Part shown: piece after piece, positions 36,058-57,800 of the stretch
Numbering within the stretch: the first letter of the stretch is position 1
Layout of the letters: each line of letters opens with the position of its first letter
Source of the DNA: Pelagomonas calceolata
Lineage: Eukaryota
Assembly: GCA_918797485.1 (NCBI GenBank)
Contig: CAKKNE010000003.1
Location: 186,001-250,000 of the forward strand
Length of the DNA: 64,000 nucleotides
Direction of reading: 5' to 3'
Made by a program: the position numbers and the translations under genes
Notes under the pieces: model-generated
The model's input: the letters and a program-made list of their open reading frames with translations, nothing else
The model's database searches: none
What the model was told of the DNA's origin: nothing

Positions 36058-37616
36058 ATGATGCGCCGCCAGCGAAGGAGAGAACAGCACGTGCGCCAGA
36101 CCTACAACGACACCGCGGCGCGCTACGAGCAGACGGATGAAGGTTTGTTGGAGCCCGAGACGCCGACGGAGCGCACGCACAAGACGCAGCAGAAGGCTAT
36201 TGTCGAAGCGACGTCCGCGAACGCCGCGGCCAACGCCTGGCGCAAGGCCTTGCCGAAGGGGCCCTACGGTATTAACGTCGCGAGGACGGGGCGCCATGCC
36301 GTTTGTTATGGAGCGGGCGGCCGCGTGGAGGTCCTAGATTTACACAGAAACGTGCGCACGGCCGAGGTGCGCTGCGGCGAAGTTTGTCGAGCGGCGACGT
36401 TTTTGCATGATGAGACCATGGTCGCAGTAGCACAGAGGAAGTACGTCTACGTCTACGACCAGGACGGCGCCGAGGTCCATAGGATGGCGAAGCATCTCGA
36501 GCCGGAGCACTTGTCCTACCTCCCGTTCCACTTCTTATTGGCATCAGCGGGCCACGCGGGCTGGCTGAAATATAACGACGTCTCGACGGGCCAGTTCGTC
36601 GCCGAGCACAACACGAAAGCGGGCGCGCCGCGATCATTAGCGCAGAACCCCCAGACCGCCGTGTTATGTCTGGGCCACGGCAACGGCGTCTGCTCGCTCT
36701 GGTCGCCGGCGCAGTCCAAGCCGCTCGCGCGGTTGTTATGTCATCGCGGGGCGGTTTTGATCCAGTGTCCGTCCGTCCGAACGCCATCGACGCGGCGCCG
36801 CCTCGGCCGCGTCTGACGCCATCGATGCGACACTTCCACGCATAGGTCGACGCCGTCGCGTGCGCGTTCGACGGGACCTATCTAGCGACGGGCGGCATGG
36901 ATGGCTTTGTTAAAGTGTGGGACTGTCGAACATGGAGGGCCGTCAAGGAGCTGCGGTTGAGTGGACGCGCCCCGGTCTCCCTGGCGTTTTCGCAGACGGG
37001 CCGCATCGCCGTCACTTGTGCGAAATCGGTAGAAATCTACGAGTCCGCAAAGAAGCTCAAGGCCTTTCAACCTTATCTCTCACATAAACTAGATGGTTCC
37101 CACGCCACGAACTCAGTGTTTAGGCCGTTTGAGGACGTTCTGTTGGTTGGCCACGCCTTGGGCGTGGATTCCATCTTGGTGCCCGGTGCGGGCGAGGCGT
37201 CCTACGACGCTATAGATGGGGATGATCCATATAGATCAAAGAAAGGGCGGAAGACGGCCGTGGTAAGGGGTTTGCTCGACAAACTACCCATAGAGACTAT
37301 AACATTACAAGGAGCGGGCTTCGTCGGTACGGTGGAGCGCGACGCCGCCGCCGCCGACAAGGAGCGACGCGCCTTGGAGGAGGACGCGAATGCCGCCTTA
37401 TCAAAACGTATCAAGGAAAAGAAAAAGACGCGCGGCCGGTCGAAGCTCAAGGCCAAGCTCAAGAAGCGCATGAAGAACGTCGTCTCGAAGGAGACGCAAT
37501 TACTAAAGGAGAAGCTCGCCGCTCGTAAAAAGAAGCAGGCTGATTCTGTTGCGGTTCAGGAGGCGGCGCCGACGACGGCGCTCGATCGGTTGTTCGCGCG
37601 GAGTAGTCGACGGTAA
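36058..37616 (+). CDS. WDR46: WDR46/UTP7 (SSU processome WD40 protein); intron 36754-36845
   Basis: FLHDETMVAVAQRKYVYVYD, YLPFHFLL and ILVPGAGE (BING4CT-like) motifs. The intron joins LCHRGA|VDAVACAFDG. Confidence 0.9.
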
Positions 37617-37832
37617 GTGGTTTGTGCGTTAGTCCTCGGCCTTTTCATAGCGGGTCGCGGCGATGGCGTTGTGGGGGGTGTGGCCTTGGCTCACCTCTGT
37701 TACGGCGCTACTCCAGTAGGACTACTGGGCGGAGAACCGGGGGGCGACAGTGCGCGTCGCCGATTCATTGGCGGCGGGCGCGGGCTGCGTCGTTCATAAT
37801 AGCACACTTCTGTCCAAGGAGCACTGGGCCAG

Positions 37833-38375
37833 CACGGCTACTCGTTCACGACGACGGCCGAGCGCGAGATCGTCCGCGACATCAAGGAGAAGCTCACGTA
37901 CATCGCCCTCGACTTCGACCAGGAGATGAAGACGGCCGCCGAGTCCAGCGCCCTCGAGAAGTCCTACGAGCTCCCCGACGGCAACGTGATTGTGATCGGC
38001 AACGAGCGCTTCCGCTGCCCGGAAGTGCTCTTCCAGCCGTCCTTCATCGGCAAGGAGGCCTCCGGCGTCCACGACTGCACGTTCCAGACGATCATGAAGT
38101 GCGACGTCGACATCCGCAAGGACCTCTACGCGAACATCGTGCTCTCGGGCGGCACGACCATGTTCCCCGGCATCGGCGAGCGCATGACCAAGGAGCTCAC
38201 GGCGCTCGCGCCCTCGACGATGAAGATTAAAGTGGTGGCGCCTCCCGAGCGCAAGTACTCCGTCTGGATCGGCGGCTCCATCCTCTCGTCGCTCTCCACG
38301 TTCCAGTCGATGTGGATCTCCAAGGCCGAGTACGACGAGTCCGGCCCGGCCATCGTGCACCGCAAGTGCTTCTAA
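37833..38375 (+). pseudogene. 5'-truncated actin (C-terminal half only)
   Basis: [20 protein letters not shown]...[16 protein letters not shown]...IVHRKCF-stop. There is an in-frame stop at 37800 and no N-terminal actin sequence upstream in the window. Confidence 0.75.
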
Positions 38376-40760: not shown

Positions 40761-40794
40761 TAAATTTACAACAGTATATATGACGGGGGGACTA

Positions 40795-40851
40795 GGCCTC
40801 GGGGGTCTCGGACCCTCTGCTAGCTTGGGCAGTGGGTCGTCACGGGCGGCC
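40795..40851 (-). promoter_or_regulatory. Candidate SECIS element in the GST 3' UTR
   Basis: Minus strand reads GUGAC-GACCCACUGC-CCAAGCUA-GCAGAGGGUC-CGAG: a GA-quartet core, 9 of 10 bp upper helix and an AA-containing apical loop. Confidence 0.75.
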
Positions 40852-40864
40852 ATCTATCCCTCTA

Positions 40865-41608
40865 TCACTTCGACGCGAACATTTTCATCATGCGCGTCAT
40901 CCCGGCCACGATGTCTTCGTCCGACGGGCGTGTGGAGGCGACGGACGGCCGCTCGAGAATGGCGGTGATTAGTTTATTCACCCTTGGGTGCCTTTTGCAG
41001 ATCTCCTTGACGTCGACGTCGCAGAAGTGCTTCAGGTTCGGTATACTACGCGCCACGAACGGAGCCATCATAGCTTCGCTGAAGCACATCTCCGTACCGC
41101 AGAGGAAGGGGCCCTCCGAGTCTTGGTGGATCTCGAGAAACGTCTCGAAGTTCTCCACGTCCTCCTCGAACTCGGCGACCTTCTTGGCGAGGGCGTCCTT
41201 GTCGTCCCGGACCTTGATGAATGCGAAGTAGTTCTGGAAGGGCTGGATCTCCGCCATCAATCTAGCGCTCGCCCTCTTTGCTGCGTCCGCAGGATAGAAA
41301 GGCGCACCGGCGCGTTCGGCCAAGTATTCGACCGTCACGCTACTTTCGACGAGCGTGTCGCCGTCGATCTCGAGCACCGGCACTTTGGCGCGACCGCCCG
41401 GATTTGCTTTTTTGTATACATTGATGAACTCCTCGCTCTTGTTCTGCAGGTCGCACTCCACTGTGTCGTGTTCGACACCGGTCTCCGCGAGAGAGATGCG
41501 GGTGCGTTGCGCGTAGGGTCAGGCGGCAGCACTCCATAGAGTGCAGCTCTTGGCCGACAGAGCTCGCGTGCTATGAAGCGCCACAGCTATCACGAGTGCA
41601 CGCTGCAT
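40865..41608 (-). CDS. Glutathione S-transferase (omega/lambda/DHAR-like) with selenocysteine at codon 30
   Basis: ATG 41608 reads MQRALVIAVALHSTRALSAKSCTLWSAAA-TGA(41519-41521)-PYAQRTRISL..., then KVPVLE..LVESSVTVEYL and GPFLCG. 247 aa with readthrough. Confidence 0.88.
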
Positions 41609-41942
41609 TTTGCTGAGCAGGCAAGTCGCAGTGCTGCTATGCCTTTGTAGAGCGCAGCACTGCTATGCAGTGAGACGGAGACGCGGCAATAGACGCAGCA
41701 CAGCAAGCGCAGCACTGTGCAGCTAGAAACTAGGACAGCAGGAAGCCTGCCGGGGCGTGGCAAAGCTTTTTTTGCGCGATGCGTCGGAGCTAGCGTCGTG
41801 TAAGACACTAGCCTGGACAGCCGCACACATGCTTTTGGCTTAAGCTCGGCCGCGTTAGCCGCCGCGGCTCTGCAGGACCCGGAAAAAAGGCACCCTGCCT
41901 CCAGAGCTCGCAACCCGCAGCGCTCCTGCTGTCAAAAAAACC

Positions 41943-42653
41943 ATGCCGAATGCCCTGTACCTCCTCCTGGCAGCGACGGCCGCCGCGGCGCCATACAAGT
42001 GCGACGTAGAGCACGCCTTCGGCGCGACCGCGACCTACGCGCGGCGCGCGACGCTGACCGTCGACCCGGACCGCGCGAACCACAACAAGCTGAAATTCGC
42101 GCCGGACAGCCTGCCGCTCGTCGGCGCCAACGCGACCGCCTTCGCCGACCTCGCCAAGGCGGACGGCGTCTACCGAATTAGAGTAAGACGCGAGGGCGCG
42201 CGGGCCTGGGCGAGCGCCTCGATCCGGGCGTGCGACCTCGCGGCGTCAAATTATGAGGAGGATTTGAGCGTGGCACTCGACGCGCGCGGCGACGTGGTGG
42301 CGCTCGCCTACCGGAACGCGCGTTTGGAGGGATGCGACGCGGGCGCGCCAGGGGAGGACGCCGCGCTCACGTCTTCGGCCTCACCAGCGCTCGACGCCGT
42401 CGCCCAGGTGATCCCCGTCCAGGCCAAGGTCGCGCGGCCGCCCTCGGGCTTCGGGAGCGTGCTGCCGCGCGACGGCGGCGCGCGGCCGGGCGGCGCCACC
42501 CCGGGCGCCCCGGGTGCGGACGAGGAGCGGCCGCCCCCCACCTCTTTCTTCCGCAAATACTGGCACATCATCCTGCCGCTCGCTTTGCTCCTGCTGACGA
42601 CGGGCGAGCCCGAGCCCACGAAGGTGACGAAGGTCGCCGAGAAGTCCGACTAG
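41943..42653 (+). CDS. EMC10: ER membrane protein complex subunit 10-like
   Basis: Signal peptide, YRIRV...ASASIRAC.L motif, and SFFRKYWHIILP before the C-terminal TM. Confidence 0.8.
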   Translation: MPNALYLLLAATAAAAPYKCDVEHAFGATATYARRATLTVDPDRANHNKLKFAPDSLPLVGANATAFADLAKADGVYRIRVRREGARAWASASIRACDLAASNYEEDLSVALDARGDVVALAYRNARLEGCDAGAPGEDAALTSSASPALDAVAQVIPVQAKVARPPSGFGSVLPRDGGARPGGATPGAPGADEERPPPTSFFRKYWHIILPLALLLLTTGEPEPTKVTKVAEKSD

Positions 42654-54800: not shown

Positions 54801-57800
54801 ACATGACTGCTGGATGATTCGCTTCGTTCGACGTGACGTTCACGAGGCACATCAAAGCTTGTCGTTGGGAATCCACATCGTCATCATTGCACAAATCGAG
54901 CAAAGGTTGCAAGCCACCGTGGACGATGATCTGCACTTGCGTGACCGGGAAGTTCGCCATGTTGCCGAGGCAGATACAGGCGTACCGCCGAATGTCGACT
55001 TCAAAGTCCTTCAACAACCCAAGCGCCGCCTGCAGGCCGCCGCCCTTCGTCGCGACACTTCGGGTCTGGATGTTCGCCGCTAAATTGGATAGGGACATGA
55101 TCGCGAAGCGCTTGCAGTCCACGTCCACCGACCCGCATAACCGTATGAGCGCGGACGTCGCGTTGGCCTGGACCAGGGCCAATTGGTTCGCCGCGGCGCA
55201 GGAGATGTTGTACAAAGCTAATGCTGCTGAACGTTGGACCTCCAACTTGCCGTCTTCCCTAGATGCCATGGCGACCAGCGGTGGCAAAGCACCGGCCCTT
55301 ACCAAAGGTACCCTATTCATCCTATTGGACGCTAAATTACATAGGACGAAGCCCGCAAACCGCGCACATTCCGGGAAGGCCTCGGCGTCCATGGCCATTC
55401 GTATTAATGGGAGGACCGCACCATGTCGGACCACATGCTCCTGGTTCGATTTTTCATTGGTCAAGTTGGACAGGGCCATGGCCGCGTACCTGCGACACAG
55501 TTCCGAGTCCTTGTCGTCCAACATGTCTATCAAAGGTCGGATGCCGTCCAGCTTGACGACCTTGAGCTTATTAGCTTCGTGCACGCAGACGTTACACAGC
55601 GCCATCGACGCGAAGCGCCGCACTTCCGGCGCGCCCGATCGACACGCCTTGATCAACAACTGCAAACCGCCGGCGTCGACGACCTTGGGCTGGTTCGCCG
55701 TATGTGCGGACAGCCGACACAACGCTCGGGCACTGAACTGCTGGCACGAGTCGAACTGCGACTCGAGGAGCGCGATGAGCGGCCCTAATGCGCCTAATCG
55801 GACAATCGTGACCTGGTTCTTCGTGACGGTCGCTAGATTGCCCACAGCGATAGCGGCATCTCGTGCACAGTTCTCTTCCGGATTGGCCATCAAATCAAAT
55901 AAGGCTTGGAGCTCCTCCGGCCCAAACACTCCCACTTGGTTGTCGGGGTGGGCCGAAATACTACAAAGGGCTCGAGCGACGTCCATCTGGATGCCCGCGT
56001 GGGGGACCCTTGACAACCTTACGAGAGGCGCGAACGCGCCGTCTCGCACGAGCGCGAGCTGGTTGTGCGGGTCCTCTGCCAAGTTACCAAGTAAACCAGC
56101 ACACTGCGCCAGCAAGTCCAAGTCCAAACCCTCGTAGGTCCCGATGGTCATGTCCGCTACACTTGCATCAACATTAGCGGCGTCGGACCGGTCGCCCATC
56201 AGACACTCGTAGACCGGCCCCAGGCCGCCTTCCCGCACGATCGGTCGCTTGATTCTCGAAGATAGTGAGAGATGCCGCAACGCCGAGACACCGAGCACTC
56301 TCAACTGCAGATCTCGTTCGCGCGCGACCGCGATCATGCATCTTAACCCACCTTCCTCCGCAAAAGTGACCTTGTGGTCTCGGTTCGTAGCCAACTCCCG
56401 TAGAGCCGCCGCCGCCTGCCTTTGCGTGTCCACATCGGTCAGACCGACTAATCCAATGAGGGGTTGTAAGCCACCCTTCGCTATGATCGTATCGTGGTTG
56501 GCAAAGTTCGGGGTGAGTTTCCGGAAGCACAGCGCAGCATTATAGAGGCACTCCTGGTCCCGCGAGGCTGCTACACTGAATAGAGATCGTAAGCCGTCCT
56601 CCGCCAAGAATAAACTGTGAGACGCTTCCGACGTCAATAGATTGGAAACAGCTCGGGCCGCTTCCCTATGAACAGAGACGTGCCTCGACCGCATCAAATA
56701 GATCAGAATGTGCATGCCGTTCAGGTGGTGTCCTATCGCTCTATGGGTCATGGGGTCCTCGGCCACATTCGCGACCGCGCCGTTCGCGAAGCGGGCGACC
56801 TCCACGTCCGGCGACTGGGCCATTTCCAGTAAAGGTTGGGCTGCCCCCGACAGGATGATGTCGCTGCGATTATCGTCAGCTAGAGCTAAGTGACATAAGC
56901 AGGCCGCGACTTCCCGCTGCGTTTCGAGGTCCTTCACTAACGCAGCCGTTGCCAAGGGTACCAGAGCACCCTCGAGCACGATCTGCCTCCGAGACTCCGC
57001 ATGCGTCGACAGATGTCTGAGACAAGCACAGGCCTGGCACCGCGCGTGTTGATCTTCCTCGCCGCACAGCGCAACGAGAGGCTTGAGGATACCCCCCGAG
57101 ACCATGATTTCATGGTTGGAATTCCTGGTAGCCATCTTGTTGCACGCGTAGACGGCGTTGAACCTCGTTTCTAAGTCAAGATCGGCGTCCATGCTATCAA
57201 CTAATCGCGCCAACGCTCCCGCCGCGAGCACCTGGTCGTGGTTTTCATGCTGCGCCAGCAAATTACCTAGGGCCAAACACGCGTACCGCCGCGCTTCCAA
57301 ATCATAACCCATCTCGTCGACCAACTTCATCTCGTCCAGTGCCTCGTCATTCTCCGCGTGCTCGTCGTCACCGAGTAACGCGGCCGTCGTCTTCATCTGC
57401 GGGCCCGTGCCCGGCGCCGGCGCGGGCGCCGGTTCAATTTCCTTGGAGACGGAGGGCGCGCCATCTTCATCTACTCGAGTCCAAATTCTCTCACCACCGC
57501 CCGCCAGGTCCACCAACACGTCGACGCAGGCCTTGTCCTCCATGAGGCGAGCGTGGCACTTCGCGTTCGTCGCTAAGTTCAATAACCCAATGGTAGCGAA
57601 CCGAGCAACCACCGCATCATCCCGTTCGGCCGCTCTCACTAAAGCGACGCTACTATCAGAATCTAAAACAACATCATGCGTCGCGTGGTTCGCTGCTAGA
57701 TTCGACAAGCAGCGCGACACCTCGCGGACCATGCCCACGTCGCCGTTGTACAGCACGAGATCATTCAGGAACGCGACAGAAGCGTCGGCGATCCAGGGCT

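Follow-up and report, generated by a model that had tools for sequence, protein, structure and literature searches.

A predicted selenocysteine-containing glutathione transferase concealed by an unsupported intron in the gene model of Pelagomonas calceolata

Introduction

When the reading frame of an algal glutathione transferase (GST) gene is interrupted by a single TGA, the codon can be taken as a stop, as an assembly error, as part of an intron, or as a codon for selenocysteine (Sec). This question is raised by a locus of Pelagomonas calceolata, a widespread open-ocean picoalga, which lies within the stretch of 64,000 nucleotides analysed here (the window, to whose forward strand all coordinates refer). 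A first-pass annotation, made from the letters alone, had proposed that the locus encodes a hidden selenoprotein. The reading that we favour, with a probability of roughly 0.85, is that of an expressed, intronless GST gene of the Cys class, in which the UGA of codon 30 is decoded as Sec by means of a hairpin in the 3' UTR and whose product is a predicted glutathione-dependent reductase.

GST is listed among the selenoprotein families of algae, where E. huxleyi has it fused to MsrA (GST-MsrA) and Mamiellales carry a GST-DsbA cluster (Jiang et al., 2020, PMC7539508). Furthermore, one GST is counted among the 59 selenoproteins predicted in Aureococcus (Moniruzzaman et al., 2018, PMC5917014), the supplements of which gave no GST match, and Sec-GSTs have been reported from marine metagenomes, comprising 4 sequences from the Sargasso Sea (Zhang et al., 2005, PMC1088965) and 12 in the GOS survey of 2008 (PMC2398784). 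The gene described here is thus a member of an already predicted kind of Sec-GST and not a new kind of system. What is added is the correction of a false intron, a Sec/Cys pair within the pelagophytes and a predicted signal peptide.

A Single TGA Interrupts an Otherwise Open Frame

On the minus strand, a frame of 247 codons without introns runs from the ATG at 41608 to a TGA at 40865-40867 (coding sequence 40865-41608, stop included), and its sole interruption is the TGA of codon 30 (41519-41521), which lies in the context WSAAA-U-PYAQR when translated as Sec. A list of open reading frames restricted to ATG starts retains just the C-terminal 130 amino acids (40865-41257); translation bears out the initial proposal that the GST frame extends upstream through this one TGA to the ATG at 41608. 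The 5' UTR (41609-41787, minus strand) is free of upstream ATGs, with a read depth of about 1 in the bin 41769-41815 and contig X6 ending at 41787.

The Messenger RNA Retains the TGA and the Public Model Removes It

Transcript evidence comes from four stranded polyA runs of one sample, of which 6-12% each was read. On the minus strand, the reads define a transcript that extends from about 41770 to about 40780-40785, with mean depths of 24.7, 28.1, 12.4 and 23.3 in the bin that contains the TGA; at the TGA itself no alternative letter is listed, and joints are absent anywhere along the transcript. Two further studies supply two contigs that cross the TGA and show 0 differences (40764-41787, with the hairpin included, and 40856-41694), the assignment of contigs X6 and X11 to RNA being a tool's guess; X17 has no coverage at the TGA. 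The 3' end of the mRNA is placed approximately at 40764-40785 on the minus strand, since in two of the four runs the read starts cluster at 40785, 10 nt beyond helix I of the hairpin, and contig X6 reaches 40764.

Three objections foreseen in the first-pass annotation fail on these data. TGC or TGT, as expected of an assembly error, was sought in the reads and not encountered, so that the TGA is confirmed; no joint in polyA reads or contigs excises it; and the mRNA, instead of being polyadenylated before the hairpin, continues past it and ends near 40785, with both TGA and hairpin present in the reads and contig that represent the mature message.

Two other positions vary among the transcripts. 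At 41407, an extra T in a homopolymer run occurs in 6 of 26 reads of run X21, in 2 of 12 of X22 and in one X13 contig, and in none of X23 and X24; it would shift the frame and probably reflects polymerase slippage. At 41508, a T>C difference (A>G in the transcript, in the codon of Gln34) is confined to run X22 (4 of 28 reads), with no DNA control.

The public NCBI protein of Pelagomonas calceolata, CAH0370265.1 (223 amino acids), shares a protein cluster with the short frame of the window and corresponds exactly to the coding sequence of the window minus 72 nt, which bears out the pelagophyte origin surmised in the first-pass annotation. These 72 nt (41461-41532, minus strand) are annotated as a GT-AG intron, and they hold the TGA together with helix alpha1. 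If the public model were right, splicing would remove the TGA and leave a Sec-free protein of 223 amino acids, and the GT and AG ends, the preserved frame, the exact match to CAH0370265.1 and the retention of both dinucleotides in one ortholog (L006) speak for this possibility. We nevertheless regard it as exceedingly unlikely. No joint occurs in the four raw-read runs or in the contigs of four further runs, with position 41508 inside the stretch covered by 24, 28, 10 and 23 reads; the acceptor AG is absent from five of six orthologs and the donor GT from one of six; and removal would delete the active-site helix. Since subtracting the 72 nt yields CAH0370265.1 and the reads contain no splice, the public model hides the TGA inside an unsupported intron. 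The expectation that automated annotation would overlook the putative Sec codon was therefore borne out, the codon having been cut out as a false intron.

Both Sides of the TGA Are Conserved in Orthologs

A metagenome scan returned 69 loci, 10 of which were inspected. The six close ones (L001-L006, 79-92% identity) were taken as orthologs, and four others (L007, L008, L012 and L018) lack a TGA at the site and were classed as distant GST-like genes. All six orthologs carry TGA at codon 30 and the same ATG 29 codons upstream. In the six pairwise comparisons with the window, which share ancestry among close kin and whose counts are accordingly not independent, codons 1-29 show 55 synonymous against 8 non-synonymous changes, and codons 31-60 show 38 against 15. 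Ungapped identity is 0.84-0.93 after the ATG and 0.17-0.43 in the 60 nt upstream of it. Judged by these substitution patterns, the coding sequence before and after the TGA is under purifying selection.

These comparisons bear on the simplest alternative, in which the TGA is a true stop and the locus is either a pseudogene or the source of only a shorter downstream product. The SECIS-like element is atypical (see below) and a 130-residue, ATG-started piece exists in the protein collection, both of which would fit a stop; selection on both sides of the TGA, a codon 30 that is never TAA or TAG in six of six orthologs, a full-length polyA mRNA and a 3' UTR hairpin that is conserved and covaries make it very unlikely. 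Among protein records, the close homologs begin after codon 30 and measure 198-204 amino acids in 120 of the 120 matches listed (of 174), as would follow if gene callers took codon 30 for a stop. Distant representatives mostly have Cys in this column (104 of 150), with a gap where the sequence does not reach it in 37 and another residue in 9. The alignment of homologs thus gives the TGA-or-Cys pattern that the first-pass annotation had suggested looking for.

A full-length protein would likewise result if a variant code or leaky suppression inserted Cys or Trp at the UGA and no selenium were involved. TGA, however, ends 14 of the 43 long ATG-started frames in the window (not all of which are genes), and it also ends the GST gene itself, in the window and in five of five complete orthologs; moreover, neither a variant code nor leaky suppression accounts for the SECIS-like element. 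This alternative, too, is extremely improbable. No tRNA genes were found in the 64-kb window. Insertion of Sec at codon 30, as predicted from the sequence, is in our estimate highly probable.

A Compact and Atypical SECIS-like Hairpin in the 3' UTR

The gap between the GST stop and the end of a convergent plus-strand open reading frame (40760) measures 104 bp and contains a SECIS-like hairpin of 57 nt (40795-40851, minus strand), comprising helix I (GGCC/GGCC), a core, helix II and an apical loop. The core consists of GUGAC (40843-40839), which begins 21 nt past the stop codon, opposite CGAG (40810-40807). Helix II (40838-40811) has 10 positions, namely 9 pairs and one A.A mismatch, and the 8-nt apical loop, CCAAGCUA, presents CC followed by AA (40826-40825, loop positions 3-4). 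The GUGAC/CGAG quartet about 20 nt past the stop in a 104-bp gap, as first described, therefore stands, and the AA of its loop is found in the window but is missing from one ortholog.

The folding energy of a 78-nt region around the hairpin lies below that of shuffled sequences (z = -2.79, with 0 of 200 shuffles equally stable), and three other cuts give z = -1.78, -2.44 and -2.57. A SECIS-like search pattern, composed after the element had been seen, matches in full once when both strands of the 64-kb window are scanned (at 40843), and once in 10 shuffled windows. Elsewhere in the window, an AUGA/GA hairpin at 57677 (minus strand) passes part of the pattern; it has neither helix I nor the AA and is probably due to chance. 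An Rfam search returned no SECIS match at E <= 10 and four weak, unrelated matches under their gathering scores.

The RUGAC/NGA core and helix I are kept in five of five orthologs for which a 3' UTR is available, L002 having the canonical AUGA, and pairs 8, 9 and 10 of helix II change on both sides (U-A to G-C, G-C to A-U and C-G to G-C). Helix II is identical in sequence in the window, L003 and L004, and shows one mismatch each in L002 and L005; pairs were counted by script, without shuffle controls. The apical AA is present in five of six sequences (the window and five orthologs) and missing from L001, the 3' UTR of which (2032-2110) forms a perfect 12-bp helix II with the loop CUACUA.

The 3' core strand CGAG misses the K and the W of the UGAN/KGAW consensus, and lineage-specific SECIS forms are noted in some algae and protists (PMC3753652). 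With no Rfam match, CGAG as 3' core strand and no AA in one ortholog, the hairpin would be an atypical SECIS. Its distance from the UGA of codon 30, 676 nt, exceeds the minimum spacing of 51-111 nt (PMC3753652), and it lies within the mRNA. From this position the hairpin would act as a SECIS and recruit SBP2 and eEFSec.

The possibility that the terminal UGA encodes another Sec, at the C-terminus, was also considered and rejected. The terminal TGA, followed by TAG (40862-40867, minus strand), is read as a true stop because it lies 21 nt from the SECIS core, and by any count the core is only 16-21 nt away, below the 51-nt minimum; the codon after the terminal TGA is also variable (TAG, TGA, TAA, TGT, CGC or GGG), which likewise disfavours such a residue.

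Family, Fold and a Predicted Signal Peptide

With the TGA read as Sec, the protein matches the Pfam families GST_N_3, GST_N_2, GST_N and GST_C_5 above their cut-offs; matches to NCBIfam are sub-cutoff only, with faint ones to Uxx-star selenoprotein models among them. The best sequence matches are TDR1 of Leishmania (E 1e-19) and human GSTO1 (E 5e-13), in both of which the catalytic Cys lies opposite the TGA, in agreement with the placement proposed at first. U30, the first residue of UPYA, stands at the start of helix alpha1. Residues 17-247 were modelled with AlphaFold from 92 aligned sequences, Cys taking the place of Sec; the model has a GST fold and a mean pLDDT of 96.8, with residue 30 directly before helix alpha1. 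The features of cytosolic-type GSTs are present, including a thioredoxin-like N-domain, a helical C-domain and the Pro and Glu-Ser residues. The latter correspond to Pro77 and Glu88-Ser89 (codons 77-89, 41342-41380, minus strand), which we take to be typical residues of the GST glutathione site; Pro77 and Ser89 are invariant in the 92 aligned sequences, in an alignment that begins at codon 17 and numbers the three residues P61, E72 and S73.

Assignment to a class within the family is less clear. Tau, DHAR, TDR1 and omega structures score alike as fold matches (TM about 0.7-0.8, 20-27% identity), with tau among the top ones. The CPxA-type motif at the N-terminus of helix alpha1 takes the form UPYA, and the nearest Cys relatives have CPYA or CPFA; the DHAR motif CPFC/S, as given by Lallement et al. 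(2014, PMC4138524), is not matched. The site of an omega-, lambda- or DHAR-type catalytic Cys, as claimed initially, is thus supported by alignment, whereas the class itself is not clearly any of the three, the trees having been built without reference members of these classes. No longer, fused homologs were found in the search, which is weak evidence, and neither the window protein nor that of Aureococcus type had a relative in the viral contigs searched.

Codons 1-16 (41561-41608, minus strand) encode a predicted signal peptide, MQRALVIAVALHSTRA, with the cleavage site placed by eye and Leu at +1, a residue that the +1 rule of ASAFind admits for plastid targeting (PMC4329603). The hydropathy of the N-terminus over 8 residues is 3.24, and differences among orthologs comprise 37 synonymous and 7 non-synonymous changes. 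Import via this 16-residue peptide is probable as judged from the N-terminal sequence, and the protein may be destined for the ER, the periplastid space or the plastid, with only about 5 residues between the predicted signal peptide and the first strand.

Reductase or Peroxidase

The putative chemistry is drawn by analogy from Cys-GSTs at 20-27% identity, which are described as deglutathionylating rather than conjugating and among which orphan algal CPYA enzymes have been noted (Lallement et al., 2014, PMC4138524). By this analogy, the selenolate of Sec30 at the start of helix alpha1 would attack a glutathionylated metabolite or protein at its sulfur, or would reduce an oxidised small molecule. 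The product would be released, leaving an Se-SG adduct that a second GSH would resolve to GSSG. The UPYA motif has no resolving Cys, and the cycle would involve one selenol only. Reduction or deglutathionylation is, by comparison with these relatives, the reasonably probable main activity.

The same selenoprotein could instead act mainly as a glutathione peroxidase, its selenolate reducing hydroperoxides. When the active-site Ser of a tau GST was exchanged for Sec in an engineered enzyme, the hydroperoxidase kcat rose 177-fold, H2O2 was reduced and CDNB conjugation was lost (Axarli et al., 2023, PMC10812501), and the top fold matches of the Pelagomonas protein include tau GSTs. However, its nearest natural relatives have Cys in CPYA, the signature of deglutathionylating GSTs, and the engineered case replaces a Ser and not a Cys. 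A peroxidase as main activity, also argued from analogy, is therefore possible but doubtful.

Relatives in Other Pelagophytes

Chrysophaeum taylorii and Aureoumbra lagunensis possess full-length relatives whose N-termini are hydrophobic and whose motif reads CPYA, with Cys. In Aureococcus anophagefferens, two models (KAH8067157.1 and KAK7247799.1) are 49-50% identical to the Pelagomonas protein and both lack the active-site segment; an Aureococcus transcript frame is typed as complete yet starts at about residue 41, from which we infer an in-frame stop upstream. Both models are named 'chloride channel' although they are GST homologs, and one has an unrelated N-terminal part.

A tree of 23 rows from the nearest matches, drawn with midpoint rooting and in agreement with a tree of 46 rows, joins the window with L001, L005, the Aureococcus row and four further N-truncated rows in a clade of 8 (support 98/99), which contains TGA-proven or N-truncated rows only. 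This clade sits among the Cys rows of Chrysophaeum and Aureoumbra, in an enclosing group of 15, the other members of which are 6 rows with Cys and a truncated long branch. The trees are midpoint-drawn, Sec forms are under-represented in databases and truncated rows outside the clade may be Sec forms as well, so that Sec may have been either gained or lost. One scenario, which we consider unlikely, is that the lineage of Pelagomonas and Aureococcus gained Sec in a CPYA GST targeted to plastid or ER, turning a deglutathionylase into a natural glutathione peroxidase of GST fold. In this scenario, to which the position of the clade of 8 lends support, the sister pelagophytes would have kept Cys.

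Relation to Known Systems

The Pelagomonas gene shares with the algal Sec-GST family, as outlined in the surveys of algae and Aureococcus (PMC7539508, PMC5917014), the marine algal origin and the replacement of Cys by Sec. The Aureococcus homolog KAK7247799.1 (50% identity) falls into the same supported clade, and orthology to the published Aureococcus GST is likely. In contrast to the GST-MsrA protein of E. huxleyi (PMC7539508), the Pelagomonas gene carries no MsrA fusion. Compared by description, the metagenome Sec-GSTs (PMC1088965, PMC2398784) have in common with it the GST fold and the predicted Sec; these surveys treat theirs as microbial and mainly prokaryotic, whereas the Pelagomonas gene is nuclear, with a eukaryote-type SECIS-like element in the 3' UTR and a predicted signal peptide.

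With the Cys-GSTs (GSTO1, 3lfl; TDR1, 4ags; DHAR, lambda and the orphan algal CPYA forms) it shares the thioredoxin-like N-domain and the all-helical C-domain, as well as a catalytic chalcogen at the start of helix alpha1 in an xPYA motif. Here, however, the chalcogen is a predicted Sec, identity is only 20-27%, and the protein is single-domain, unlike TDR1. The engineered seleno-GST has Sec at the GST active-site position as well, made chemically from Ser in a tau GST, whereas the Pelagomonas enzyme, if it contains Sec, is natural and of the Cys-class lineage (Axarli et al., 2023, PMC10812501). Artificial enzymes were also the only selenium-containing GSTs with peroxidase activity found in the literature, in a search outside which most subscription journals lie.

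Genomic Neighbourhood

A divergent plus-strand transcript begins near 41850, about 80 nt from the start of the GST transcript, and the interval 41770-41850 suggests a compact bidirectional promoter. This plus-strand transcript belongs to the gene at 41943-42653, which encodes 236 amino acids with a signal-like N-terminus and a C-terminal hydrophobic segment, SFFRKYWHIILP; no Pfam match was found at E 0.001, and the product presumably resembles the ER membrane complex subunit EMC10. Downstream of the GST, 36058-38375 (plus strand) holds a WD40 gene in two frames (36058-36816 and 36897-37616) and the C-terminal frame of an actin (37926-38375), which is an ordinary housekeeping context.

Implications

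The analysis corrects a gene model of Pelagomonas calceolata, the public protein of which lacks the catalytic helix. The main text of Jiang et al. (2020, PMC7539508) contains 0 mentions of Pelagomonas, and a search for Pelagomonas together with selenoprotein or selenium, with most subscription journals outside its reach, gave nothing on topic by title. Since Pelagomonas selenoproteins thus seem unsurveyed in the literature searched, other Sec genes of this alga may be hidden by false introns as well. The compact SECIS adds to the lineage-specific elements that curated models miss, and that of L001 offers a natural test of whether the apical adenines are needed in pelagophytes. Likewise, the Sec/Cys ortholog pair of Pelagomonas and Chrysophaeum allows a clean test between a faster deglutathionylase and a switch to peroxidase. 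Should the latter prove true, the enzyme would be a natural glutathione peroxidase of GST fold, otherwise met only as an engineered enzyme in the literature consulted.
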